The position numbers and the translations under genes were made by a program. A DNA stretch of 64,000 nt from Eledone cirrhosa (lineage: Eukaryota). The notes under the pieces were generated by a model. It searched no databases and was not told the origin of the DNA. It saw only the letters and a program-made list of their open reading frames with translations. Of this stretch, positions 2,190-61,500 are shown piece after piece (position 1 is the stretch's first letter; every line of letters starts with the position of its first letter). The stretch spans positions 22,506,001-22,570,000 of the forward strand of contig OZ024743.1 of NCBI GenBank assembly GCA_964016885.1, given 5' to 3'.

Positions 2190-3025
2190 ATAGTAGTAGT
2201 AGTAGTAGTAGTAGTAAAAGTAATAGCGGTAGCAGGAGTAATAGCGGTAGCAGTAGTAATAGCAATTGTTTCTACTTTAGGCACAAGGCCAGTCAATTAC
2301 CCAGTGCATTACTGGTACTTTATTTTATCGACCCCGTAAGGATGAAAGGCAAAGTTAACCTCAGCGGGATTTGACTTTGCCTCTCATCCTTACGGGGTCG
2401 ATAAAATAAAGTACCAGTAATGCACTGGGTATTTGCTGGCCTTGTGCCTAAAGTAGTAGTAATAGTAATAGCAGCAGTCATAGTAATAACAGCAGCAGTA
2501 GTAATAGTAGTAGTAATAGCAGCAGCAGTAGTAATAGTAGTAGTAATAGCAGCAGCAGTAGTAATACCAGTAGCAGCAGCAGTAGTAGTAGTAATAGCAG
2601 TAGCAGTACTAGCAGCAGTAGTAGTAATAGCAGTAGCAGTACTAGCAGCAGTAGTAGCAGTAGCAGTAGTAATAGCAGCAGCAGTAGTAATAGTAGTAGT
2701 AATAGTAGTAGTAATAGCAGCAGTAGTAGTAATAGTAGTAGTAATAGCAGCAGTAGTAGTAATAGTAGTAGTAATAGCAGCAGCAGTAGTAGTAGTAATA
2801 GTAGTAGTAATAGTAATAGCAGCAGCAGTAGTAATAGTAATAGTAGTAGTAATAGTAATAGCAGCAGCAGTAGTAATAGTAGTAGTAATAGTAGTAGTAA
2901 TAGCAGCAGTAGTAGTAATAGTAGTAGTAATAGTAGTAGTAATAGCAGTTGTAATAGCAGTAGCAGGAGTAGTAGTAGTAGTAGTAATAGCAGTAGCAGC
3001 AGTAGTAGTAGTAGTAGTAGTAGTA
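2190..3025. repeat. Compound trinucleotide tract (TAG/TAA/CAG)n interrupted by a SINE fold-back
   Basis: AGT/AAT/AGC units in constant register. This tract produces the spurious poly-V/T/L/Y ORFs. Confidence 0.95.
2264..2456. mobile_element. Two SINE-A 3' halves joined in inverted orientation (fold-back)
   Basis: 2272-2358 is the reverse complement of 2371-2456 with few mismatches, separated by a 12-nt spacer. Confidence 0.9.
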
Positions 3026-3590: not shown

Positions 3591-3743
3591 CTGTTCTGTT
3601 TTTATATTACCTCAAAAGCAATAAAAATACAAAACATTAAAATATCTAGCAAAGAACATCTTAATATTAATTGTTTTACTATAGACAGAAGATTATACTT
3701 TCAGACATTGTAATATTAATAATATATTAATATTATATATATT

Positions 3744-3926
3744 AATTGTTTCTACTTTAGGCACAAGGCCAGCAATTACCCAGTGCATTACTGGTACTTT
3801 ATTTTATCGACCCCGTAAGGATGAAAGGCAAAGTCAACCTCGGCGGGATTTGAACTCAGATCGTAAAGGGACGTAACTATGCTGGAAAACATGGCGTCCG
3901 ACCCTCTACCGATACTGCCAATCCAC
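3744..3926 (-). mobile_element. SINE-A, full-length tRNA-derived copy
   Basis: On the minus strand: A-box-like TGGCAGTATCGG, B box GAGTTCAAATCC, central GCCTTTCATCCTTACGGGGTCGATAAAATAAAGTACCAG (resembles, from memory, the Meta/MESC SINE core), and an ATT tail. Confidence 0.92.
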
Positions 3927-3943
3927 ATTAATGATATTGATAA

Positions 3944-4125
3944 TAATTGTTTCTACTTTAGGCACAAGGCCAGCAATTACCCAGTGCATTACTGGTACTT
4001 TATTTTATCGACCCCGTAAGGATGAAAGGCAAAGTCAACCTCGGCGGGATTTGAACTCAGATCGTAAAGGGACGTAACTATGCTAGAAAGCATGGCGTCC
4101 AACCCTCTACCGATACTGCCAATTC
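3944..4125 (-). mobile_element. SINE-A, full-length copy head-to-tail with 3744-3926
   Basis: Nearly identical to the preceding copy and flanked by ATTGATAAT(A/G)AT on both sides. Confidence 0.92.
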
Positions 4126-4728
4126 AAATTGATAATGATTTTTTTATTGGTCACAAAAATATAAGGACAAAATACAAGCAGCAGCAGCAAAGCAGTAGCA
4201 GTGGTAGCAGCAATTGTTGTTGTAGCAGCAGTATTAGTAGTAGTAATAAAAAATATTTCAATAATTTACCAAAAGAATAGAGTCTCTGTTGCATTCAAAG
4301 CTAATAACTATAGCCACCTTTGTAAAGTTTGATAAACACACACCATATGTCCTATGTCATGTTTATAAAACTTTATTACAAAGACTGACATAGTATGTAA
4401 AAGAAACTTTAGTAAAGAACCAAATTTAGAAATTTTATGAGTCTGACAGTGGATAATTGAAATAATTTATCCTTTTGACAGGCCTTTTGGTAAGCTTTAG
4501 TGCAAAGCAGGACATTTTGTGTGGTGTGGGTACTCTTTCACAAAGAACATATTTTCATTAACTCTATTTTCTAAATCTTAGGGTGCACCATTGAAAAGTA
4601 GCAGTGCCATTCAGTAGTCTGCATCCTGAAATCAAGAAATAATTATTTCATTCTTTGGTATAAGGTCTATTTGTAAGAAATTACCTTTTTTTAGCATTTG
4701 TTTGTTTTTCTTAAAATTCAGTATTTAT

Positions 4729-7116: not shown

Positions 7117-8249
7117 CTCAAAATAATCTAATAATAAAAGTGAAAAAGTAAGAAAAAAATTGAAGAGATGTAGAGTAAAGCTGAAGTGTTTCAGTACTTA
7201 TATTAGATAACCAGTTCATAGAGTAAGGACTTCAGGCATATTGTTGCATATTTGGCAAGTTCACACTTCTACATGGCTCAGTTCACATAGCTGATGGGAT
7301 TGGGTCAAAGTAGCAGATTATCTTGTAATGCTACTGGAAATAAAGTGGTGGTCTATCCAGAAGAAACATACATCTATCTGATTATGACAATAAGATCAAT
7401 GAAAAACAATGGCTCTTAAAAATCTCCTTTGAGCTTAAGAGACATTTGAATGTGTTTTTATAGACCAGGTGGAAGAAAATAGATGGATACCATTAGCTAT
7501 GAAACCAAGTAAAATCAGATATTTCCAACCACAACTATGGTTAGCCACATGACTAAGGCTTTTTGTCAATCATTTCATATTTTGCTGCCAGCCTATTGCT
7601 TGGCAACTGAGGTTGCTTTTGCTTTCCCTACCTCATCCCCATTCCATACACAACCCAGTAAAGTGCTGCTTTGGCAAACAGGATCCAAAGCAATATAGTT
7701 TGATATATCCGATTCATAAAGATAAGTAAATTGATTGGCAAGTAAATTCACAAGCAAAACAAAGGCTTATCTTTTATTAGTTCTTACTAAGACTGGAATC
7801 TCACCTTTCCAAATCTTTATCAAAAAGATAGGATTACTATATTACTATTACTATTTATTCAGCCATTGAGGGATGAGTGGCTATGTTGGCCTTGATAGGA
7901 TTTTAGCTAGAACCAAGAAACATCAGACAAGAATACTGTAAAATATCTAAGTTGATGCTCTTACATGTCTGCCAAATTTAAAATGACAAGAACTAATAAT
8001 ATAATAACAGTATTATGAAATGAGAACTAATCAGGATAAGTAAACAAATTATATTGCCAAAGTAATTTTGCCACATGATGTTATTAATTGGTTATCTGAA
8101 AATTGAAATTTGTACTTATTCTGTCATATGTATGTATGGCTATATGTGTATGCATATTAGCTTAGATGATCATATGCATGCAATTGTAATTATATGCAGG
8201 GCATGTGTGGGTGTTTATATATTCTTATAGGCTCATATGTCTGTCACAC

Positions 8250-12253: not shown

Positions 12254-15200
12254 CATCATCATCATCATCATCATCAGGTTTAGCGTCCGTGTTCCACGCT
12301 TGCATGGGTTTGGACGGGGGTTTTCCCACTTGAGGCAAGAGTGGTTGTTTTGCTCGCATAGGACTGTCTGGCGGGTTTTCTACAGTTGGATGCCCTTCCT
12401 AACACCAACCACATTTACAGTGTGGGGCTGGGAGGTTTTTACCGTGTTGCCTACACGGCCACATTACAGCGTGGACTGTCTGGCGGGTTTTCTACAGCTG
12501 GATGCCCTTCCTAACACCAACCACATTTACAGTGTGGGGCTGGGAGGTTTTTACCGTGTTGCCTACACGGCCACATTTACAGCGTGGACTGTGTGTTTTT
12601 TTGTCGTGACACCTACACGATCTCATTTGTTTCGGCCTGGATGTTGTGGGACCAACATAATTGTACATTGAAAGGGGCGGTGTGGATGGGGTGGAGGTGG
12701 TGGGACGGGGGGTGTTTTGATAGAGATGCCTACTGACTGTAGTAGGTTTTTACTTTGTATTTAGGTAAGGCGGGTCTTCTCTATTACTGAGTACCGCCAA
12801 AGGTCTCGGTCCAGTGACATTGTCTTGGAGAGGTGTAAGCGTGTGAGGTCGGAATTTATCAGCTCGTCCCATGTTTTTCTGGGTCTGCCTACTCCGTGGC
12901 TACCGTCTATCTTTATTGCCCTGCACTTTGTTATACAGCTGTCGTCTTTCATGCGCATCACGTGACCGTACCAACGTACCCTTCTCTCGAGTAAACAACA
13001 TCTGATCCCTCTTATTTCTAATTTTTTCCTTAGTTCGTTTATGCTTTGCCGTTCACGTATATTACTATTGCACATCCAGCGGAGCATGCAAGCTTCGTTC
13101 CTCTCTAGTCTGCGTATATCCTCTGCACACAATGCCCAGGTCTCACTGCCATGCAGCATTGCTGTTCGTATGCAGGCATCGTATAACCTGCCTTTCATTT
13201 TTAGGGAGAACCCTCTAGCGGCTAATAGTGGTATAAGCTCTCTGAACTTTTTCCATCCAGTTCTGACTCTAGCTACTGTACTTTCAGAGCACCCTCCCCC
13301 ACTGCTGATTTTGTCACCCAGGTAACGGAAGCTGTCCACTATTTCTATAGAACCCTCTGCGCAGTTGAAGGAGCTAGTATTTTGTGGGCACTTGCTGCTA
13401 CTTATTGCACCAGAGCACCGGCCACATGTAAAATCTATGTTCTTAGTTAGCTTACCTGTGATCCCACTACATCTTTTATGCACCCATACTTTGCATTTGG
13501 GACATAAAATGGAGTTTCTACCTACGCCTTTCCTACACACTGAGCATGGCCATTTCCCAGATGGGACTGCCGCCATATTTTCTTTCCTACAAACTAGAAC
13601 TTTTGTCTTAGCCAGGTTAATTTTAAGGCCTTTTGATTCTAGGCCGTGCTTCCATGTTTGGAATTTCTTCTCTAGTTCGGTCATTGATTCAGCTATGAGG
13701 GTTAGATCATCTGCGTATAGGAGTTCCCATGGGCAGCCGGTCTTGAACTCCTCTGTTATAGCCTGAAGGGCAATAATAAATAGTAGGGGGCTAAGAACAG
13801 AGCCCTGATGGGCAATAATAAATAGTAGGAGGCTAAGAACAGAGCCCTGATGGACACCAACTTTTACGCTAAACTCTTCACTATATTCGTTGTTAATTCT
13901 AACCTTACTGACTGTTTCTTTATAGCTCTCACAAGCCATTCGTCAACACCTAGTTTTCTAAGAGACCACCAGATAATGGAACGGGGGACTCTGTCGAAGG
14001 CTTTCTCCAAGTCGACGAAAGCTAAGTATAGGGGTTTACTTTTAGCTAGGTACTTCTCCTGTAGTTGTCGTACAATGAAAAGAGCGTCTGTGGTACTTTT
14101 GCCTGACACAAATCCGAACTGCATTTCATCTAGATCAATTCTCTCTCTGATTAGTTGCGCTATTACTTTTTCCGTGACCTTCATGACCTGGTCGATTAAT
14201 TTAATGCCTCTATAGTTACTCCTATCTAGGGCATCTCCTTTTCCCTTATAGCAGTTAACGATGATGCTGCTACGCCAGTCCTTCGGAACAACCCCATTCT
14301 GTACGACTTGGTTAACTATCCGGGTGACCATGGTGTGTCCCACCGAACCAGATGCCTTCAGCATCTCAGCAACTATTTCCGAAGGACCAGCCGCCTTACC
14401 CGTCTTCATATCTTTGATTGCCTTGCTTATTGTACTTCCCTGGACCAACACTGCTGGTCCCTCTATTGGGTCGATGTGGGGGAGACTGTCTTTCTCCCAT
14501 TTGTTCTCCTCATTTAGAAGCCTTTCGTAGTGACACTTCCAAGCTACCTTCTTATCAGTGTCGGTGATGGCAAGTATGCCATCATCGTTAAGCACACACT
14601 TCTCCCCGACAATATCACGGTTTTCCTTGACACATTGCCTGGCAATCCTGAACACCTCACGTTTTTGGTCCTCACGTTGTAGAACATGCTTGAACTTTCT
14701 TTCCTCTGCTTCCCTTCTTGCGAAGTACACTTGTCTCCTAGCTTCCCTCCTAGCTACCTGATAGTCTTCTCTACTTCCCCCATCTCGCCATGCTTTCCAA
14801 GCCTGCTTTTTGGCCTTAATTGACTCCTCCACCTTACTGTTCCACCACCATGTTACTCTCCTCCTACCTACAGGCCTGCTCCAGCCACAGACTTCGTCTG
14901 CCGCCGTCAGCAGGTTTGCTCTCAGGAATTCCCACTGTTCCTCTATATTATACGACTCTAATTGCTCTGCCTTACTGTCGAAAGCGTCAAGTAATATGCT
15001 TTGAAATTTATTTCTGGCTATGGGGTCCTTTAGCTTCCATATTTTTCTCCTGAGGATAGTCCTCTTCCGCTGTCTAGTACGTCTCGTCCTGACTATGAGG
15101 TCGCTAATTATCAGTCTATGTTGGGAGGTGAATTCTTCATGGGGGAGGGATTTAGTGTTAACAACAGACACTCTGTCACGTCTTCTGGTAAGGATATAAT

Positions 15201-16253
15201 CTACCTGGCTTGTGTGTTCCCCCGATCTATAGGTGATCAAGTGATTGTCTCGTTTTTTGAAGTTAGTGTTACAGATAGTTAAGTTATTTGCGTCGCAGAA
15301 TTCCAGGATTCTGGAGCCTTCCTCATTTCTAGTACCGAACCCATAGCCTCCATGGATTCCGTCATAGCCGTCACAATGCTGTCCAACGTGACCATTTAGG
15401 TCGCCTGCAATAACTATATAGTCACTGTCGGTTATTTGGGAGGTAGCGAGCATCAGTGTCTCGTAGAATCTGTCTTTTATAGCACCGGGCAGTCCGGATT
15501 GTGGTGCGTACGCAGATATTACTGTCACCGTAGTTTTATTGAGGACAAGTCTTATTTTAATTATTCTGTCGTTCATTCTATTTACGTCTATTATCTTATC
15601 TGCCCACTTTTCTGCTACCATGATTCCTACCCCACCCAACCCATTGTCATTTCCCACCCAGAAAAGCTTATAGCATCGTTCTTTACCCACGATCTAGCCG
15701 ACCCTCCCCTCCACCTGGTCTCTTGAATACAACAAACATCGACCTCCTTACGTTCAAGCATTTCTACAACCTCGTTAGAGCGACCCTTTAAGGTGCCTAC
15801 ATTCATGGTACCAACTCTGAAGTTTTGGATTGCGTTTGGAGGGTGGGAGCGGTGGGGCGCGGGGGGGATGGGGTTATGTTAGCCATCCTGGGCCGAAACA
15901 AGGCGGAGTGCTTGCATTCTCGTCCACGAGGTGAATTTGTCTTTATCTTTGGCATTGTCGCTGAGCGTCCACATTTTTCTCTCTTCAACTCTCCAGAATT
16001 CCGTAGTCCATCCATCATATCGAAAAGCAACCAGTTAGGCAATAGTATAGGCCTCTGACTTATGATTGGTCCACGTAATAATGGTGGTGCGTGGGGGCGG
16101 GTGGGAGGGATGATGTGTTGTTAGCGAGAATGTAAGGTTTAAGATAAGATCGCCGTATTTTGGGCATAATTTAACAATAAACGAAAATACAAGATTTGTT
16201 TTGTTTAAGAAAATACGATAGAGAAAATGCGGTGATAGGGAAAATATGATTTT

Positions 16254-20030: not shown

Positions 20031-20192
20031 CTTTTCATCTTTTACATCAAAAGGTTCATCTTTCCCACTGAACTTGTTGACTGTCTGTGCAACACCAATC
20101 ACTTCACCATCTCGATCTTTAATTGGCATGCTGAGAATACTATGTGTCTTATAGCCAGTCTTCAGGTCAATCTCATCATTAAAGCGAGGATC
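20031..20192 (-). CDS. PDE11A: Internal coding exon (162 nt, phase 0-0) of a GAF-domain cyclic nucleotide phosphodiesterase, PDE11-like (PDE5/11 group), GAF-A domain
   Basis: Translates to [54 protein letters not shown], which matches the PDE11/PDE5 GAF-A pattern (D.RFN.EID..TGYKT.S.L.MPI....GE.IGVAQ.INK...F...DE, the NKFDE motif). Acceptor TTTCTTTCTTTATTTCCAG|GAT and donor AAG|GTATAT. PDE11 versus PDE5 is judged from recalled similarity only. Confidence 0.9.
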
Positions 20193-20947
20193 CTGGAAAT
20201 AAAGAAAGAAACAAAGGATAGAAATCACATTTATTCAAAATCTAAAACATCTCAAGAGCGAACCAATTAAAATATTCTATGTTGCAAATATTGAACAAAT
20301 TCATAATTAAAAATATTTGTTGTTTTTGTTTGCTATAGATCTCAAAACAAAATGAATGCAAATGAAATTGAAGCCAACCAAATAAACTGCAGCTAATTAT
20401 AAGATGTTGCATAGAAAGATAAAATTAGTTCATTTCATGCTAACTTCTTTTCTAATTCAAAAGTTGGTATCAGAAAAAAAAAACAAATTTCAAAGACTAT
20501 TTATCTGCCTGAAGCTAAACCTACATATTTAATCTTATAAAGTATTTCAATGCCAATTGTTAATGTTGCAGTTTAAATACAGAGTGATATTTAAATATAT
20601 GCTCTGTTACCTACTTTAAGATTAACAATTTGAAATTCATGTGCTAAATGTGTAGGAATAAATCTGCTAGAAAGAAGTTAAGTGAAATTCACAACTTTAT
20701 TTGGTCTTACAAAAATCAGTAACTGCTATTTATAATAGTTTCATTTTGAATCATTAGTTTTGCCCATGGACACATGTATTTATATGATATCTTACTTATA
20801 AAAATGTAAAAAGGTTTGAAGCTCAGAGAAAATATCTTAATGGCCCACATATTGGCAACCTTTGTTCTAGACAGAAATATATATTTCAAACTTGATTGAC
20901 AAACTAAATCAAAAACATTACAAATTAACAAGAACACTTATAATAAT

Positions 20948-21129
20948 AATTGTTTCTATGTTTGGCACAAGGCCAGCAATTACCCAGTGCATTACTGGTA
21001 GTTTATTTTATCGACCCCGTAAGGATGAAAGGCAAAGTTAACCTCGGCGGGATTTGTACTCAGAAGGCCGTAACTCTATGCGTCAAAGCATGGGGTCCGA
21101 CCCTCTACCGATACTGCCAATCCACCGCC
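20948..21129 (-). mobile_element. SINE-A directly downstream of the Tx1-like LINE tail
   Basis: Full-length copy with (AAT)n on both sides. Confidence 0.92.
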
Positions 21130-21449
21130 ACAAATAATAATAATAATAATAATAATGATTTCTTTATTGGCCACAAGGGCTGACATCAAGAAAAACATTA
21201 CAGACAGCACAGGACGGTACGATGTGGGTTTTGTGCGTGTAAAGATTTTTATTATTTATATAAGAAACGAAGAAAAAAAAAGACATAGAAACATATATAT
21301 ATATAAACAATAAAAATGAAAATTGAAACAATGAAAAATTCCCCAATAGGGGGGAAAACATCCGAGAGTTACACGTGGCGAAAACCACACAAAAGACCAG
21401 GGCCACCCTGACCACCAGGGTAAGTGCCCTCTCTCAATTTTTCCATTTC

Positions 21450-24400
21450 TCAAACTACAGGCGTATACTCGGACCATTCTCGCTACATTCACCCACCTTT
21501 CAACAAATTTGATTTTCCTGATTTTCCTCTTCAAGTGAAACTTGAAAAAGTTAATTAGGGATTCACCGAAGAGGAAAGTGTCTGTCTTTAACCCTTTCAA
21601 CCTTGTCTACCACATAATCTCATTCGCCATGGCCACCAGGCAGATGAAAACTGCCTACTCCTCCTGCTTGAAGGAAGACGGCGAGACCATCTGCACAATG
21701 GACTCAGTCGATAACCGGATCAGTCCTACACATGACAGCAACTGTTCGACATAGCTCCACAAGTCAGCAATGCTCGGGCACTGAACAAGTGCGTGCACGA
21801 CAGTTTCATCGCTCTGCGCTCATCTCGGACAGGCTCAGCTGACGCAACTTCCGTGCCTGTAGAGCTTATCTCGAACCGGCAACGATCCCCGGTAGCACTG
21901 CCAGGCCAGGTGTTTTTGGAAGTTATCCATAGGCCCTGGGCTGAAAGTTCTCCGGAAGAGAGCAAACAGCTGATCTTCTTCGACACCCAGGATCTCTCTG
22001 AGAACGTCGTCGATCTTCTCCTCCACTAGTCCTCTATAGAACGCCGAGGTGGATGACCACCGATACTGGTGCCCAGCTGGCAGAGAGTGCCTGGAGACAT
22101 TCCAGTTTCCAAGCGCTATCCCTCGGTCTTTTTCTGACCCAGGACTGCAGCTCCGTCAAGGAGACGAGCTGTGGGAAAACGTACCTGGTGAATGGCGACC
22201 ACACCTGTTCACCATCAATGTCGCAGCCTCAGTGCATGTTTGTGCGTCATCAGCGATGGCATACCCAGTCCTCCACGCAACAGGTGTTGACAGTAGATGG
22301 ATCGTCTGACCTTGGGAGCGCGTCCCTTCCACAAAAAGCGGAAGAGGAGGCGCTCCATTTTGGTGAGAGTTGGGCCGGGGCAAGGGATGATGGTGAGGCG
22401 GTAGCAGATGACGGATGCGATCTACGCATTCGCCACCTCCGCCCAGCCTTTCAAGGACAGCTTCCTCTCGGCCCATTTCTGGGTGAGGGAGGCCACATTG
22501 CACATCACCTCGCTCCAGTTTTTCTCCATCTGAAGGTCCGGTCCGAACCAGACCCCGAGCAATTTAAGCGGTCCGTCCGTCCAACGTGCCACGACGCTGT
22601 CGGACAGTATGAACTTGCCTCTCCAGGTGCCAAGCTGCAAGCCCACCGACTTTTCCTGGTTTATCTTTGCTCCTGTCACCGCTTCATATTCCTTGAGAGC
22701 AGTGCCGAGCATCTGGATGTGTCTGGTGCTCGACACCACTACGGTGAAGTCGTCGGCACAAGCCGCGTCGGATTTCCCGAATCAGATTTTCGCGTGGGAC
22801 GCCCCTCATTGCCCCCAGTTTGTGCAGTAACAGCTCGAGAGCCAATACGTACAAGAGGGATGAGAGGGAACAACCCTGGTGGACCGAGCGCATGATGCTG
22901 AATGGCTGCAACAGGTGACCATTCACCCTCACAACTGAGCAGATGTCACTGTACATCGCAACGATCCAACCCCTGAAAACGAGCCTGAAACCGGCTGCCT
23001 CGAGGACCGCCGCCAGGTAGCGATGGTTGACCCTATCGAATGCTTTGGATTGATCCAAGTTGATCAGGGCCCCACCCGTGCCAGGTTCCTTAACCACCTT
23101 CTCGATGATGTATCGCATGAGGTGGCGGTTTTCGTGTATGGATCTGTCAAGAATGTCACATGTCTGTAATTCTCCCACCAGACCCTTGACGACAAGAGCC
23201 AACCTCGTTGCTAACACCTTGGCCTGAGGTTATCGATAACATGCCCCTTGTTCGGGTCTTTTCTCAGCAATGCCACCGCTCCCCGGCTCACAAAACTGGG
23301 AATGCTCTCGTTCTGCTGCCAGTTGCAGTAGACGTCTGCCAAGAGGTCACCGAACAAGTCTGGCATAAATGCATAAAGCTCGTACGGCAGACCATCCAAA
23401 CCTGGCGATTTACCCCTCGTGCAGTTAGCTATCGTTTCCCGCATTTCACCGGCTGTTATTGGCTTTTCGCAACACTGTGCTGCGGTTGCCAAGAGCCGAG
23501 GCAGTCCGTCGAGGTATGCACTGAAGTCCATACCCCGATCCGGCCTGCCGCTGCTCCCGAACAGTTCAGCAAAGTGCTGCTGAAAAGCTTCACACATCTG
23601 CTCGGGTTCGAGCAACACGCGCCCGTTTTGGTCAGATAAAGATCGAATTGTGGCTTTGTTTCCACGCCGTGCCTTTGCCACCCGGGCCCATTGGACGGCT
23701 TTTGTCCCCACGTGTTTCAGAGCATGCGCTCTAGCTCTGACAACGCAGCCTTCGTGTTTTGCGTTGAAGAATTGGTCGAGTGCCAATCTCGCCGCAAGCA
23801 CGTCGGTTGCGATGCCTGTCCTAAACGCCTTTTCTAGCTTTCTGACTAGCTCTCCCTCTACCCTATTTTCCTCTATCATTAGTCCTTTGATAAACCTAAT
23901 CGAATCTACTTTAATTGCCCTTTTCAGGGCGAACCACCACCTGTTGTTGACGACCGCTCCTGTCAACGCCCGCTTAACTAATACGCTAATCCGGTCTCTG
24001 TAGGCTTTGCGCGCCGGGAAAGACGTGTTCAGCTTCCAGTAACCAGGCCCTTGTCTATGAAGTCTGTCTATGTCGATCTCACAGATCACAAATTTGTGCT
24101 ATGTGTAGTCGACTATTTTAAATTGTGGACAACTTATACTAGCCGTATCTAGTCCTCTGCAGAATACCCTATCGCGATACAATCTGGATGACCCGATGCG
24201 GTTTGTCCATGTCCACATTGGCACATTCGGGTGATCCAGACGATACCTGTCAGACAGTTCAAAACGTCTCAGCAGGTTGGTGAGGCTCTTGCACCCTCCT
24301 CCCCTATCCACAAGCCCCACACAATCCCAGCGTGAATCCAAGATACCGTTCCAGTCGCCCACTAACTCTAAAGAGCGGGACGTTCTAAGAAAGGTTTCTA

Positions 24401-24782
24401 GACGTCTGAAGAAATCTGGCCGCCCTGTCCTTTTCGGGGCATAGACGGCTACTAGCCTGAAAGCGTTGCCTTCGGTGCCGCTTATGTCCAGCACCACCAA
24501 CTCACCTTCTGGGTCCAGGAAGATGGTCCGCATGGCGAGACCCAAGCCTTTCCGAAACACAGCCACTCTGCTCCCGGACGGCTCGGAGATGCGTACACCT
24601 CGTAACCGTCGAAGATCGGTGCGAAAGCTTGCGTTTCGGAGATTCTCGTCTCACTGATGGCCACCACTTCTATGTTTAGTGACCTGAGGTCGTTAAGCAA
24701 GTGACCCTGCTTCCAAGTGACCCTGCTTCCAAACTGAGCTCAAGCAACGCACGTTTACATTTTCGATCCTGAATACGACCAT
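21450..24782 (-). pseudogene. Tx1-like ORF2 (APE endonuclease, reverse transcriptase, C-terminal CCHC finger), multiple lesions
   Basis: Begins MVVFRIENVNVRCL (ATG at 24782), then AISETR, VAVYAP, GDWN, GPGYWKLN, KSPGLDGLP, LDQSKAFDRVNH, QGCSLSSLLY, CADD (for YADD), KLLGVWF and CPR*..DETVVHALVQCP. A 16-bp duplication at 24701-24732 and other frameshifts or stops break the frame. The 3' end is approximate. Confidence 0.9.
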
Positions 24783-26650
24783 GTTGGGTGAGGAACGGGG
24801 CAGGTGAGTATCCCTCCTAGGTCTCTGAAATCACCAACTGCGTTGGGGAATTTCATTTTAATGTTTATGTATTGTTTCTGTGATATTCTTACCAGTCTTA
24901 TGTTCGTTGGTGTTTTGATTGGTGCTGGTATTATGTAGTCGTGCTGTGAAATGTCTGTGTTCAATTATGTAAATCATTAGTTTCTTGTTGCATGTATTTA
25001 TTGCTGTGCATTTCTTTTTCTGGGGGTGGGGTGTGGTTCTGCTATTTTCTTGTCGTTGTTGCTGGGTGTGTGTATTTTGTTGTGTTTGTGATGTTGGTGC
25101 TTGTGGTGTTGTTGGCGGTGGGGTTGCCGCCGGTGGTGATGGTAGTGCTAGTGTGGGTGGTGATGGTGGTGTTGCTGCTGTAAGTCTCTTTGCAGTAGCC
25201 TTCACAATTTTTTTCATTTCTTTCCTCCCTTTTCGAAGGCGACGATACGCTGCTTCTGCGTCTGTGCCTTCTTGCGACCTTTTGCCATCCCTCTCCCACC
25301 TCATGTCCGATTCTGTGAGGTCAGGGAGGGGTACCAGGTCCACTCTTTCACTTGTTCGTGATGGTTGCAGTGGAGTCTCTGTTGCAGCTGCAGTTGGTAT
25401 TACTGTTGTTAATACTTCCACTGCTGCTGCTGTTCTTGATTTCTATGGTGTGGGTATGGGTGCCACAGACCTATTCTTCCTGCTTGCCGCCTGTCCTGTT
25501 GCTGGTAGCAGTGGAGCCGGTTTCGGAAGGTGGGGGGGGGGGGGGGGTTTCTCCGTTCTCAGGGTCTTCTCATTGCAGAAGGCCCTGAGGTGAGTCTTCG
25601 ACCCACAGCGAAAGCATTTCAGGCATCTGCCCTCAACACTTATGGGAAGTTGAGTGCCGTTATCAAAGTCTATCACATCTGGGATAGCTTTGATGCACTC
25701 CTGGTTGGTTTGAATTAACATCTTAATGGTGGCACCGACCCAATCTTCTCGTGCTTTTTTCTGTACTTGCAGTACGGTTGTTTTGTCCTCGATTCCGACA
25801 AGGACAGACGTGGCCAGCCCGGTGGGGACTTGGGTCAGTTTGACCCTCACAATTTTTTGCCTGCAGTAGGAGGGCACCAACACCATTTCCTCGCTCCTTA
25901 GGGTCACTAAGGATTGAGCCTTTGCCTCCTGGAGTGTGGCAAAAAGCACGTCCACGGTGGCATATTTCTTGCCTCGGGTGATATGCGTTTTCCGCTGCCA
26001 CAGAGACCCTAAGGCTTTTTGTATTTGAGCCTCTGTAGCTCTTTCAACCCTACGTGATTTTGTGCTTACTGTACGGTACTGCTGTTGGGTTTCGAAAAAT
26101 TCTTCGGCTGCCTTGCAGGTTGCTCGGTGTCCGGTTTTCGTCACCATCTTCTGTGGTTCCTGTAATTCCTCATTTGTTATAAGGATGGTTTCAAGGTTCT
26201 TTGCGAACCCTGCAAACAAGATTGGTTTTTCTTTCTTGTTGTTGTTGTCGTCAGAGCTGCTGTTACTATACCGCCGCCGCCGCTGTTGTTGTTGCTGTTG
26301 TTGTTGCTGTTGCTGTTGCTGCGACTAGTATTTTCCTCACAAATGTTGCTGCTGCTATTATGGTTGTGGCTGCTATTCTTATTTACGTCAGATGAATGAA
26401 ATGGCTTTCCGTATTTACTGCACACATCTTTCGTCGTTGTCGTGGAGAAATGTTCCACGGTACGCGTGTTCTTTTGATGAAGAAACTACATTTTTCTTTT
26501 TCTTTAATGGCATCGCTTGCGAAAGAGGCGATACCACATTTAGAGAAGGGAAGGAGAGAGAGACAATCTTTTCTGACGTAATGACGATTGAGGAAGAAGA
26601 AGACGGAAAGAGTGGTAGTGACTTGTGAAAATTCTTTTTTGTAGCCATGT
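24755..26650 (-). pseudogene. Tx1-like ORF1 (gag-like nucleic-acid-binding protein), frameshifted
   Basis: The 25443-26219 segment has the CX2CX4HX4C knuckle CFRCGSKTHLRAFC followed by a Pro/Thr/Gln-rich region. The start position is uncertain. Confidence 0.75.
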
Positions 26651-26863
26651 TTTTTTTACGGTTTAAAATGAATATTGAGCACAAAACCCCAAAAACCGGT
26701 TATTTAACCCGGAAGGGCCAAATAACGGGCAGAAAGACCCCTCTCACGAGGAGGAGGGTGTCTTTATCTACAATTTGGTTCAAGTTTTAAACAATTTACA
26801 ATTGTTATAACGGTTAAAAATTACTATACCTTACAGAGCTGAGCCTACGTCAACCATGGCTTC

Positions 26864-27050
26864 AATAATAATAATAATAGTTTCTATTTTTGGCACAAGG
26901 CCAGCAATTGCCCAGTGCATTACTGGTACTTTATTTTACCGATCCCGTAAGGATGAAAGGCAAAGTTAACCTCAGCGAGATTTAAACTCAGAATGGCAAG
27001 GGCCATAACTATGCATCAAGGCATGGCGTCCAACCCTCTACCGATACTGC
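26864..27050 (-). mobile_element. SINE-A directly upstream of the Tx1-like LINE
   Basis: Its (ATT)n tail is the LINE's 5' flank, and another (AAT)n follows at 27052-27081. Confidence 0.92.
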
Positions 27051-27086
<36 letters not shown>

Positions 27087-40003: not shown

Positions 40004-40087
40004 ATATGCTTCAGTTTTGAAGATGTTTTTTGTAGTGCACCTGAGTACTGTACACAATAATTTTCATATTTCATAATTATCCTCCTC

Positions 40088-40402
40088 ATTTTTACGTCCG
40101 CTTTTCCCTGCTTGCAAGGGTGGGACGGGAACTGATTCTGGCTTGATTTCTACAGCTGGATGCCCTTCCTAACACCAACCTCATTTACAGTGAGTGCTGG
40201 GTGCTTTTTTTCCGCGGCGCCTCCACATCCTCTTTGCAGTGGAATGATATGGACCCCAGTCCCTATCATCTCATTTCTACAGCTGAGTAAACTGGAGCAA
40301 TGTGAAATAAAGTGTCTAGCTCAAGGAAACAACACATCACCCGGTCTGAGAATCGAACTCACAACCTTTCGATTGCAAGGCCAATGCTCTAGCCACTAAG
40401 CC
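40088..40402 (-). mobile_element. SINE-B (~315 bp): tRNA head, CORE/V-like centre, RTE-derived 3' end
   Basis: A box TGGCTTAGTGG, B box GAGTTCGATTC, centre TTCCTTGAGCTAGACACTT. The 3' part GGTTGGTGTTAGGAAGGGCATCCAGCTGTAGAAA..GGACGTAAAA is shared with the RTE 3' UTR. Confidence 0.88.
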
Positions 40403-41455
40403 AATTATATTTATGAAATTTTTAAAGGAATATTCCAAACGTCAGATAACTACTAAAATAGTTACTTCATAAAATGTCTCCAAATTTATTTTTTATTATT
40501 TTTAAAATTAATCGAAACGTAGATTATTTCATTAGAAATATGGTAATAAAAGGGTTAATGATAGGACCTCCAAGGTTCCAGCCCTGTCAATGGGCCACAA
40601 TTATATCATGGTCCCCATTCTTGTTACAGAGCCCTAGACCTATCAAAGGGCCTCATATTATGTTATTTCCGCTAATTACAAAGAAATAATTAGCATTTCA
40701 CACACACTCCTTGCCATAGATTACTAAATTTAGATAAAATAAGACAACATAGGATGCAAGTATTTTAACTTCCTAACGCCAACCACATTTACAGTATGCT
40801 GGGTAATTTTTGTCACACACACACACACACACACACAAAAGATAGCCCTGACAATAAACATTAAAAGATACAGCAATGTAGAAGACATATACATACATAA
40901 TATGAAAGAATACTGGTGGAATGTTCCAGTCAACACTCCAATAAAATGCAAGCATAACAGACCAGATATAATATAGGACAGGGAAAAGAAGGCATGCACA
41001 GTAGTGGAAGTCAGCTGCCCAGCAGATGCCAATATATCAAAGATTAGTGAAAAGGAGAACATCTATGCAGAACTAATGAGAATTCTGCAGATACTCCACC
41101 CTGACTATGCCTTCAGATTTATACCTATGATTATTGGGGCACTGGGGTAAGTTACTAACTGCCTCCGTACAAATCTTAAGAAGCTAGGCTTGATAGAACT
41201 AGAAAGAATACAACTAGTTAGGAAATTACAAATACAATCCTGTAAAACATTCCAAAATTTCATCATGTGATAACTATCACATGTATGGATACAAAACATA
41301 CACATATACACATAATTAGAAACATACAGATCTCCACATACAATAACATCCAAACCTGCATACACACACACTGACATATATACATATTTACCTAGTTGAT
41401 GTTGTCTAAATTTGAATGAGAGAGTCTTGTGTCTATTGGTAAAAATTCATGAAAT

Positions 41456-53292: not shown

Positions 53293-54246
53293 AAAAAATG
53301 AAAGGCAGGTTATACGATGCCTGCATACGAACAGCAATGCTGCATGGCAGTGAGACCTGGGCATTGTGTGCAGAGGATATACGCAGACTAGAGAGGAATG
53401 AAGCTTGCATTCTCCGCTGGATGTGCAATAGTAATATACGTGAACGGCAAAGCATAAACGAACTAAGGAAAAAATTAGAAATAAGAGGGATCAGATGTTG
53501 TTTACTCGAGAGAAGGCTACGTTGGTACGGTCACGTGATGCGCATGAAAGACGACAGCTGTATAACAAAGTGCAGGGCAATAAAGATAGACGGTAGCCAC
53601 GGAGTAGGCAGACCCAGAAAAACATGGGACGAGCTGATAAATTCCGACCTCACACGCTTACACCTCTCCAAGACAATGTCACTGGATCGAGACCTTTGGC
53701 GGTACTCAGTAATAGAGAAGACCCGCCTTACCTAAATACAAAGTAAAAAGCTACTACAGTCAGTAGGCATCTCTATCAAAACACCCCCCCCCGTCCCACC
53801 ACCTCCACACCATCCACACCGCCCCTTTCAATGTAAAGTTATGTTGGTCCCACAACATCCAGGCCGAAACAAATGAGATCGTGTAGGTGTCACGACAAAA
53901 AAACACACAGTCCACGCTGTAAATGTGGCCGTGTAGGCAACACGGTAAAAACCTCCCAGCCCCACACTGTAAATGTGGTTGGTGTTAGGAAGGGCATCCA
54001 GCTGTAGAAAACCCGCCAGACAGTCCACGCTGTAATGTGGCCGTGTAGGCAACACGGTAAAAACCTCCCAGCCCCACACTGTAAATGTGGTTGGTGTTAG
54101 GAAGGGCATCCAACTGTAGAAAACCCGCCAGACAGTCCTATGCAAGCAAGACAACCACTCTTGCCTCAAGTGGGAAAACCCCCGTCCAAACCCATGCAAG
54201 CGTGGAACACGGACGCTAAACCTGATGATGATGATGATGATGATGA
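53293..54246 (+). mobile_element. RTE LINE, 5'-truncated young copy, nearly identical to the reverse complement of 12254-13205
   Basis: The 145-aa ORF remnant differs at 2 residues from the full copy. It has the same duplicated 3' UTR and a (GAT)n tail. Confidence 0.95.
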
Positions 54247-60359: not shown

Positions 60360-61500
60360 AAAAATTGCTGCTAGTGATATGAAATTAAAGCTCTACTTAT
60401 GTATCACCATCCAAAATCTAAGGGTAGTAAAGGGAGAAGCTATGTTTACTTTGGTGCTCAATTAAGAACACATGGAGTACTGATAAGCGTTTTGAAGACT
60501 GATTTATGTACCTTTTTTTATTTTACCCTCACGTAGAATGGTACAGTGCCAGGCATAATATTTCCAACAATGTATTGTTCTTTTAGACAATGAATCAAGC
60601 CATTCATCATCATTTTACGTCCGCTTTTCCCCCAATTGCAAGGGTGGGACGGGAACTGATTCTGGCTTGATTTCTACAGCTGGATGCCCTTCCTAACACC
60701 AACCTCATTTACAGTGAGTGCTGGGTGCTTTTTTGCCGTGGCACCTCCACAACCACTTTGCAGTGGAATGATAGGGACTGGGGTCCCCATCTCATTTCTA
60801 CAGCTGAGTAAACTGGAGCAATGTGAAATAAAGTGTCTTGCTCAAGGAAACAACACATCACCTGGTCTGAGAATTGAACTCAAAACCTTTCAATTGCAAG
60901 GCCAATGCTCTAACCACTAAGCCATGGGCCTCCATTCAGTGAACTTAAATTATATTTCTGATAATATGAAAAAAGAATATACCCCATAAAACCTAACTTC
61001 TTTGTTCCAGTCAATGGATCACTGTGTGAGGGCTAATTTTAAGGCATAGTATCCAAGAAATTAGAAACAACAGATAACATACAGTTAGAGACTTCTGTTC
61101 AACTTTATATAGCTAAGTTATGACATGAAGTAAAACCATCATATATGAATGGTATTTAGAAAAATATGCAGTCAGACTGTATCTGCACATTTACAAGTTT
61201 TTCACCAATAAAAAAAAAATGCATCAAATTTGTCAAAATATTGAGACACTGGCAAATAATGTAGGGTTTAAAGAAGTCATAGAAGATGTAGTTGAGATGC
61301 TAGTCAAAAGTTTGTCTAATGAGGAGCTGCTATTGGAACAAGAGTGTGCTGCAGGGCCAGAAGAAGATATGGAAGCTCCACTAACTCCATTTAAGTTGAC
61401 TCCAAAGAATATTGCTAAAAGGTTGGCATTTATAGACGAGGGTCTGAAGGACCCTTGCTATTAACAATCCTAATTGTGAACATAAAGATTACAAGAAGAG
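60360..61500 (+). pseudogene. Tigger/pogo (TIGD1-like) DDE transposase relic, interrupted by SINE-B
   Basis: Remnant motifs in order: AASDMKLK.LLMYH..QN.R (cf. NAAGDFKLKPLLVYHSENPR), VLLDNESSH (cf. LLLDNAPGH), TSLFQSMDHCVRANFKA*Y (cf. TSLIQPMDQGVIANFKAYY), and GFKEVIEDVVEML..LSNEELL. Confidence 0.75.
60603..60931 (-). mobile_element. SINE-B with a 7-bp target-site duplication (CCATTCA)
   Basis: Highly similar to 40088-40402. CCATTCA occurs at 60600-60606 and 60932-60938, and there is a (GAT)n tail. Confidence 0.9.

Follow-up and report, generated by a model that had tools for sequence, protein, structure and literature searches.

An array of LINE and SINE copies on one strand

The window analysed here is a stretch of 64,000 nucleotides (nt) from the octopod Eledone cirrhosa (assembly GCA_964016885.1, contig OZ024743.1, positions 22,506,001 to 22,570,000), and it contains an array in which a long interspersed element (LINE) stands between two copies of a short interspersed element (SINE), here called SINE-A. 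Read along the minus strand, the order is (ATT)10, SINE-A, (ATT)5, a 5.7-kb LINE, (ATT)8, SINE-A and (ATT)3, with all parts in one orientation (Table 1), as an earlier note made from the sequence alone had described. The LINE terminates in GCCCTTGTGGCCAATAAAGAAATC-ATT and the two SINE-A copies in GGCCTTGTGCCAAACATAGAAACA-ATT and GGCCTTGTGCCAAAAATAGAAACT-ATT. The LINE end quoted in the earlier note is accurate, whereas the SINE end given there is the common form of the family and is not letter for letter that of either array copy. The LINE is a dead copy with 8 stops in the aligned segments of its second open reading frame (ORF2) and at least 4 frame changes, and the order of its ORF2 domains is taken from an unbroken relative, L100. 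The stack likely sits in an intron, in the sense of a gene that is represented by a GAF-domain exon and that we take to be a phosphodiesterase gene. From the pattern of SINE target-site duplications described below, the run at 20940-20950 is likely the short target with which the stack began.

Table 1. Features of the array and the neighbouring exon, with positions in the window.
Feature	Position	Strand	Basis or remark
(ATT)10, 5' of SINE-A copy 2	27052-27083	-	sequence
SINE-A copy 2, short form, about 10 nt absent at 5' end	26879-27051	-	sequence
SINE-A copy 2 loop	26895-26899	-	16 nt before ATT run
(ATT)5, between SINE-A copy 2 and LINE 5' end	26864-26878	-	sequence
LINE, full-length but broken, L1-group (Tx1-like), family a, 5' type A	21157-26863	-	copy comparison
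LINE ORF1 remnant, one CCHC knuckle motif	24800-26648	-	broken; about 100 bp absent at end relative to other copies
LINE ORF2 remnant: apurinic/apyrimidinic (APE) endonuclease, reverse transcriptase, C-terminal zinc region	21451-24782	-	RVT_1 E 1.6e-10
LINE 3' module: GCC stem, CTTGT loop (21173-21177), GGC stem; loop lies 16 nt before ATT; AATAAA present	21157-21180	-	
(ATT)8, between LINE 3' end and SINE-A copy 1	21133-21156	-	sequence
SINE-A copy 1, short form	20951-21132	-	88% identity to window copy 3746-3935
SINE-A copy 1 3' module: GGC stem, CTTGT loop (20967-20971), GCC stem; loop lies 16 nt before ATT	20951-20974	-	
(ATT)3, 3' of SINE-A copy 1	20940-20950	-	sequence
GAF-domain exon	20040-20192	-	Pfam E 8.8e-6; about 750 bp from array, same strand

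The array is representative of the genome at large, and its comparison with copies elsewhere leads us to propose that a radiation of L1-group (Tx1-like) LINEs probably mobilises SINE-A through a 3'-terminal module that the LINEs and the SINE share. The copies compared come from the 3.0-Gb assembly, in which designations such as L100 label sampled loci. An unselected sample of 600 kb, evenly spaced across the genome, was supplemented with a fresh 200-kb replicate. LINE copies were also picked by their 3' end (30 loci, using a query that included 7 nt of the ATT run), by their 5' end (30 loci, 20 of them refetched at greater length) and by ORF2 (40 of the 133 matches listed). Inspection of 90 loci for 3' ends yielded 68 distinct recognised ends, with 20 missed, and inspection of 70 loci for full-length 5' ends yielded 44 distinct ends, the window copy included, with 25 loci lacking one. 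The criterion for target preference was Kojima's rule, by which more than 20% of flanks are of one type. Statements about papers cited by PMC number refer to excerpts of each paper.

L1-group LINEs with Tx1-like features

Sequence comparisons place the LINE in the L1 group. Its ORF2 aligns at 54-72% along that of L100 (1,153 amino acids, from the unselected sample), which matches Exo_endo_phos, RVT_1 and, weakly, zf-RVT. The top match among solved structures is human L1 ORF2p (165 bits for L100, versus 72 bits for R2; 165-174 versus 72-88 bits overall), on a limited panel in which the Protein Data Bank (PDB) matches included no CR1, RTE or L2 ORF2. As in the Tx1 clade, an APE endonuclease is followed by a reverse transcriptase. 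Among the four ORF1 pieces searched, one matched zf-CCHC (E 0.0035, below the curated cut-off) and none matched Transposase_22, and the look-alikes of ORF1 in the Atlas are CCHC and ZCCHC3-type RNA-binding proteins (0.90-0.93). ORF1s of this CCHC/RNA-binding kind in non-mammalian animals have been described as fitting Tx1 (PMC5203782). The homology searches and cluster look-ups returned no named Tx1 reference among their matches, and the label 'Tx1-like' is therefore an indirect one. Thus, of the Tx1-like identity proposed in the earlier note, assignment to the L1 group stands, and assignment to Tx1 rather than to the L1 group at large is indicated only indirectly. One protein match, at 66% identity, is named from the octopod Argonauta hians. 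Relatives in metagenomes are distant (24-40%), and none of the 10 inspected has a comparable end.

The genome carries a radiation of these LINEs, comprising families a (that of the window), b, c, d and e, which are distinguished by their 3' untranslated regions (UTRs). In a quick tree that contained no named Tx1 and from which the RTE row was left out, families a, b, c and e form one clade with two database proteins (SH-aLRT 100), and c is closer to e (SH-aLRT 92, not starred). Copies of family a average 95% identity (34 selected copies), and the window copy is 85-90% identical to its best matches. Family b is the commonest of the families in the unselected sample (3 loci), where two copies are 98% alike over 3.1 kb. 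Family a is found with two different 5' halves, and 5' type A also precedes family-b-like ORF2s. Halves comprising the 5' UTR and ORF1 have been exchanged between ORF2 lineages (L171, L174 and L185-L188 versus L132 and L168), which indicates that recombination in stacks does occur. Such half-swapping is expected if stacks favour recombination or read-through.

Insertion at ATT repeats in a fixed orientation

At least three ATT triplets on the sense strand precede every one of the 44 full-length LINE 5' junctions (median 8), and (AAT)3 precedes none of them. On the other side, 63 of the 68 LINE 3' junctions adjoin at least three ATT triplets, and a CTT run is found at the 3' junction of two copies (L011, L140). 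Because runs of this length occupy 0.057% of positions in the 600-kb sample, the ATT targeting and flank bias anticipated in the earlier note are well founded. The flanks are (ATT)n, and a (TC)n or (TTC)n target of the Kibi/Koshi type was not encountered among them. Among LINEs inside pure arrays, the duplication length could be read in L132 only (19 bp). Nested duplications show insertion into the target of an older copy (L120, L130, L100, L351).

The elements found across the ATT run at 112 junctions are strongly polarized. SINE-A accounts for 27 neighbours and sister LINEs for 39, all on the same strand (27:0 and 39:0). Dong-like elements account for 20, all on the opposite strand; the remainder are one CR1-like and 25 unclassified neighbours. 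The names 'CR1-like' and 'RTE-like' are presumptive, being based on motifs and Pfam matches. The Dong label is based on a best match to R2, AAT flanks and the reported TAA target of Dong (PMC3812793). Two R4/Dong-like families (L157:3-2390 and L144:6148-9110) use the ATT microsatellite but face the other way, and often stand tail-to-tail with a Tx1-like LINE.

SINE-A is abundant and inserts with ATT-initial duplications

SINE-A is a non-coding element of about 185 nt with 145 matches in 800 kb, of which 112 lie in the 600-kb sample and 33 in the replicate. It makes up 2.4% of bases, which extrapolates to about 5 x 10^5 copies or fragments, and none of the other short window repeats tested is as common (108 matches for SINE-A versus 45 for the next unrelated repeat). 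Motifs resembling the A and B boxes of RNA polymerase III (pol III) promoters were noted by eye; ARAGORN and Rfam reported no tRNA or RNA family at SINE-A, and there was no U1 or U2 match in Rfam. Copies of the short form have a mean identity of 89% and a maximum of 98% (36 copies, a rough measure), and by similarly rough identity levels the activity periods of SINE-A and LINE families a and b overlap.

Target-site duplications were counted in 56 SINE-A copies with ATT at 15-18 nt, one mismatch being allowed. A duplication of at least 9 bp is present in 39 of the 56 (median 14 bp); it starts exactly at the tail junction in 32 of these 39 and begins with ATTAT in 29. One or two perfect ATT units are all that 52 of the 56 copies carry. 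The replicate gave 12/16, 10/12 and 13/16 for the duplication, start and ATT-unit counts, respectively, and some apparent duplications are chance microsatellite matches. The 'tail' of SINE-A is thus mostly duplicated target, with almost no ATT added by the SINE. Since the duplication begins at the tail junction, new targets arise by target-site duplication. The earlier note had supposed that both elements deposit an ATT tail and thereby seed polar clusters of their own. The polar stacking is real, but the SINE counts do not support seeding by deposited tails, for which target duplication is to be substituted; the family that does add new (ATT)n is a CR1-like one. A more extended SINE target, ATTATTT, set by the U-run of a pol III transcript, was considered and rejected, as T follows ATTATT at 14 of 34 sites versus a background of 38% (p 0.42).

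Sixteen pairs of SINE-A copies lie no more than 60 nt apart, compared with a null mean of 2.5; 13 are same-strand, 3 head-to-head and none tail-to-tail. The replicate contains eight such pairs, seven of them same-strand. This excess is overstated because several pairs are split fragments of one copy.

Several variants of SINE-A were noted in passing. An older long form (L080:8406-8625, compared with window 3746-3935) is longer by about 30 nt, which lie upstream of the 3' module, and its tail is nearer to the LINE ends than that of the young form. Four head-to-head fused pairs are present among 314 matches (window 2257-2456; L003:3083-3183; L173:7972-8061; L121:5703-5960), in which both partners are 5'-truncated, both have a 3' tail and the two are joined near internal palindromes; no tail-to-tail fused pair was found among the same 314 matches. 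Fold-back synthesis and priming of both nicks are candidate readings. The locus L095:6241-6354 resembles a 5' inversion. The window also holds a second small stack (3739-4136), a head-to-tail SINE-A dimer that directly follows a decayed Tx1-like 3' end.

A 3' module shared by the LINEs and SINE-A

SINE-A, in both its old and young forms, and LINE families a-e share a 3' module composed of a 3-bp stem enclosing a CT(T/G/A)GT loop, followed by 16-17 nt that contain AGAAA or GAAA and then by the repeat. The distance from loop to ATT is exactly 16 nt in 49 of 61 SINE-A copies with intact tails, and the replicate agrees (16 of 17). MAFFT aligns the module rows in the proposed register, ungapped but for one extra base in family c, and RNAalifold arrives independently at a predicted 3-bp hairpin in which two of the three pairs vary on both sides. 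Over 11 rows, one pair is C-G throughout, another is C-G in 6 LINE rows and G-C in 5 SINE rows, and the third is G-C in 10 rows and A-U in family b; a possible fourth pair fails in 6 of the 11. The proposed register is 86% paired, versus 16-59% for all slid registers.

Tail resemblance was scored against the last 28 nt of SINE-A at 7,669 ATT-anchored sites, with a null set of 4,541 (mean -3.1, standard deviation 3.2). The 3' ends of Tx1-like LINEs are the top non-SINE matches among all of these sites, with scores of 14.5 for family a, 16.5 for d, 17 for a variant of c, 12 for e and up to 10.5 for b. Ends of other clades score 1.5 (CR1-like), 0 (RTE-like) and -1.5 and -5 (Dong-like). Four null sites reach at least 14.5, all of them unmasked SINE fragments, and the next highest scores 10.5. 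The common 3' end of LINE and dominant SINE that the earlier note perceived is therefore supported, and none of the sampled CR1-, Dong- and RTE-like families provides a better match. In having a common 3'-terminal sequence, although a short one of about 24 nt, these elements resemble a SINE/LINE pair of the stringent type.

The same scores bear on which LINE is responsible. The earlier note gave the role to the family in the window, a claim that fares poorly: the module is present in four or more sister families that target ATT, of which two score higher (16.5-17 versus 14.5), and the unselected sample contains a different sister family that is both more numerous and younger. The mobiliser probably comprises several ATT-type families over time, and it is doubtful that family a was the main one.

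Family e (25 matches, mostly 98-100% identical; L100:2525-6286, L291-L315, L353, L357) keeps the hairpin and its spacing but sits in (ATCT)n, with TATCT following 20 of 23 copies. From these sequences it appears to be a natural target switch, in which the hairpin is held in common and the target has changed. As a partner for SINE-A, family e was considered for its unbroken ORF2 and a SINE-like duplication at L100 and was rejected, since ATTATT follows none of the 23 copies. At least one further ATCT-type family exists (L295 upstream, L353).

A proposed mechanism and its alternatives

Target-primed reverse transcription is well known for L1-group elements. The Tx1-like LINEs insert at ATT motifs in one fixed orientation. 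In the mechanism that we propose, the strand reading ...AAT-3' would be nicked and its 3' end paired with the AUU end of the RNA; ORF2p would bind the hairpin, and the start of reverse transcription would be set 16 nt downstream. A second nick 10-20 bp away would duplicate the target, and each insertion would leave two same-sense target copies, one at each end. Later LINEs and SINEs could then enter the duplicated targets and build up a head-to-tail stack. Where long arrays surround full-length LINEs, they are likely to be part target and part RNA-derived or slippage. A more ambitious proposal, which we regard as a toss-up at best, is that a single CU-N-GU hairpin serves as a ruler for the whole cephalopod Tx1-like radiation, with a switch between ATT and ATCT targets, and drives a SINE of about half a million copies. 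It would constitute an undescribed animal case of stringent 3' recognition in the L1 group.

A number of observations weigh against these proposals. The shared stretch is short (about 24 nt), and the hairpin is weak, with z-scores of -1.7 to +0.7, none of them significant. When sequences are folded singly, five LINE ends keep the loop and three SINE ends give a different minimum-energy structure. The common stem-loop sought in the earlier note is predicted from the alignment, with covariation, but not by the single SINE folds or the energies. The covariation amounts to about two independent events (SINE versus LINE, and family b), because the rows are related and the structure was derived from them. 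The young form of SINE-A scores 8.5 against family a and the old form 14.5. In an unanchored scan of the replicate, chance matches reach 12.5; another ATCT-type LINE end scored above them. SINE-A targets are short, with at least three ATT units in 4 of 56 copies, whereas full-length LINEs lie in long arrays (median 8). Among 30 LINE copies that are 5'-truncated, (ATT)2 lies no further than 12 nt from the 5' junction in only 10 (against a background of 1%), and some copies with no nearby ATT may be later rearrangements. Because the start of the target-site duplication follows the RNA tail in RTE systems (PMC6007223), the ATTAT start by itself does not identify the endonuclease, and endonuclease choice and tail pairing are inseparable here. 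Finally, rare LINE clades may be absent from an unselected sample of 0.8 Mb.

Two of these observations, the different folds predicted for young SINE-A copies and their poorer match to LINE ends relative to the old form, would suit a history in which the SINE tail is a relic of a Tx1-like ancestor and present copies are made by any ATT-compatible LINE through tail pairing alone, with no recognition of the hairpin. We consider this unlikely, given that old and young SINE-A alike retain the stem, the loop and the 16-nt spacing and that the SINE stem differs from the LINE stem on both sides of a pair, which is not readily produced by drift.

It is quite improbable that the true partner is a LINE of an unsampled clade, such as L2, Nimb, Hero or RTEX, with a longer match to the SINE end. 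The small size of the unselected sample leaves room for one, as does an RTE-like family (L104) whose 3' end was not identified. However, no such end was found among the 7,669 anchored sites or in the fresh 200 kb, and L2 and Nimb are absent from the recently active LINEs in Table 1 of a study of a different species, Octopus vulgaris (PMC13282606).

In favour of a young CR1-like LINE ending in (ATT)n are a true ATT tail, abundant copies that are 95-100% alike (30 copies, 20 with both ends, one of the latter, L317, with a wrong end; L097:3296-6214, L316-L345), and membership of a group whose LINEs often partner the SINEs of molluscs (PMC11481361). If it mobilised SINE-A, the resemblance to Tx1-like ends would be due to chance. 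Yet its last 31 nt have no match to SINE-A, the score of 1.5 being reached by 9% of null sites, and its insertion signature is unlike that of the SINE: copies add 2-9 new ATT units, their apparent duplications have a median of 6-7 bp, those of at least 9 bp (5 of 20) never start at the tail junction, and ATT runs are not found directly at the 5' junctions of the 20 copies. This signature largely refutes the idea, which we regard as very unlikely. The CR1-like family makes arrays rather than reusing them.

That the stacks are passive pile-ups at unstable microsatellites, which would need no common machinery and could arise through slippage, recombination or tandem duplication, is hardly credible: arrays longer than one duplication explains and 5' ends swapped between ORF2 lineages speak for it, but polarity is strict and clade-specific (66:0 for SINE-A plus Tx1-like LINEs, 0:20 for Dong-like elements), neighbours differ from site to site and target duplications are nested.

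Relation to known LINE/SINE systems

Mobilisation of SINE-A by Tx1-like LINEs would combine features that are known separately. Tx1 elements specific for the microsatellites (TC)n, (TTC)n, (TTCC)n and (TTTC)n have been reported (PMC4494074, PMC3812793). Kibi, Koshi and the crocodilian Tx1 families are, like the LINEs described here, APE-type L1-group elements residing in a microsatellite, but the excerpts of those two papers describe no partner SINE for them, whereas here the LINEs target (ATT)n, or (ATCT)n in the case of a sister family, and SINE-A is present as well. The nearest precedent for a SINE mobilised by Tx1 elements is crocodilian SINEU, for which mobilisation by Tx1-Mar was inferred from a shared target preference and overlapping age (PMC4494074). 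According to the same excerpts, SINEU families have U1/U2 heads and a Mariner target, and SINEU-1 lacks significant 3' similarity to a known LINE. SINE-A differs in having a 3' module in common with the LINE, an ATT target and, as noted above, no U1/U2 match.

SINEs with L1 tails made up 3 of 58 in one survey and came from maize, sorghum and a green alga (PMC3747384). Like SINE-A and its proposed partners, ZmSINE2/3 with LINE1-1_ZM and SINEX-3_CR with L1-1_CR unite an L1-clade LINE and a SINE by a conserved common 3' end, and the maize/sorghum pair is of the 'stringent' type, having a hairpin with compensatory changes (PMC3747384). Those pairs belong to plants and green algae and have A or T tails, whereas the present case is animal and target-specific, and its module is both shorter, at about 24 nt, and weaker. 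In UnaL2/UnaSINE and the L2, CR1, RTE and Nimb pairs, LINE and SINE have a common 3' end with a stem-loop and a short repeat, comparable to the module predicted here, but these pairs involve other LINE clades, and the common regions in bivalves are 35-61 bp at 72-95% (PMC11481361, PMC3747384).

The SINE partners reported for molluscs are CR1, CR1-Zenon, L2 and Nimb, with Tx1 not among them in the excerpts concerned (PMC11481361, PMC4824008, PMC4758252). Likewise, the octopus SINEs OK/OR1/OR2, tRNA-Core and tRNA-Deu, dominant and of tRNA type, are given there without a named partner LINE (PMC4824008, PMC4758252, PMC8967140), and SINE-A may be one of these families; a literature search for the motif of the conserved central domain of OR1 and OR2 gave nothing relevant. 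Octopus repeat surveys, as excerpted, list L1-Tx1, Dong-R4 and large SINE families with no partners (PMC13282606, PMC8967140), and the excerpt of the SINE survey PMC3747384 does not mention octopus or squid. Searches of the open literature turned up neither a Tx1-SINE pair from cephalopods nor a Tx1 specific for ATT or ATCT, and entries in Repbase, Dfam or SINEBase may exist. An animal partnership of this sort would be a rare case. Microsatellite-specific LINEs and tandem SINE insertion are already known.

For the same reason, the stacking itself is the less surprising part of the observations. Tandem Alu copies lie on the same strand and use the A-tail. As in the stacks described here, new Alu copies gather beside older ones (work cited in PMC3415434), but they do so through the relaxed, poly(A)-based recognition of mammalian L1 (PMC3415434). 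Dong, of the R4 clade, is TAA-specific (PMC3812793) and thus uses the same microsatellite, and Dong-like elements are present in the arrays; they differ from the Tx1-like LINEs in belonging to a restriction-like lineage (best PDB match R2) and in their opposite orientation.

A Tx1-like case from an animal, with a hairpin that covaries, bears directly on whether RNA recognition in the ancestral L1 group relied on a specific 3' structure or on poly(A) only, the known L1-tailed SINEs in the survey being from plants and algae (PMC3747384). Octopus repeats consist in large part of SINEs (PMC8967140, PMC13282606), and our proposal, if true, would supply the dominant SINE of octopods with the partner it has lacked. 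Sister families that have the hairpin in common but differ in microsatellite would then also be a natural pair for separating endonuclease choice from RNA-tail pairing.

Other repeats in and around the arrays

A subfamily of the CR1-like LINE carries a duplicated 3' UTR of about 130 nt, and the tails of CR1-like copies at unrelated sites may supply fresh targets for Tx1-like and Dong-like elements. The window also contains an RTE-like LINE (12254-15693, minus strand) with a PHD-finger match after the reverse transcriptase, a 112-bp duplication in its 3' UTR and an (ATG)n tail; its last 950 bp recur at 53294-54245 in the opposite orientation and are 98.6% identical. A second short repeat (window 40080-40403 and 60604-60924) has, by eye, a tRNA-like head and an RTE-like tail, and is likely the RTE's own SINE.

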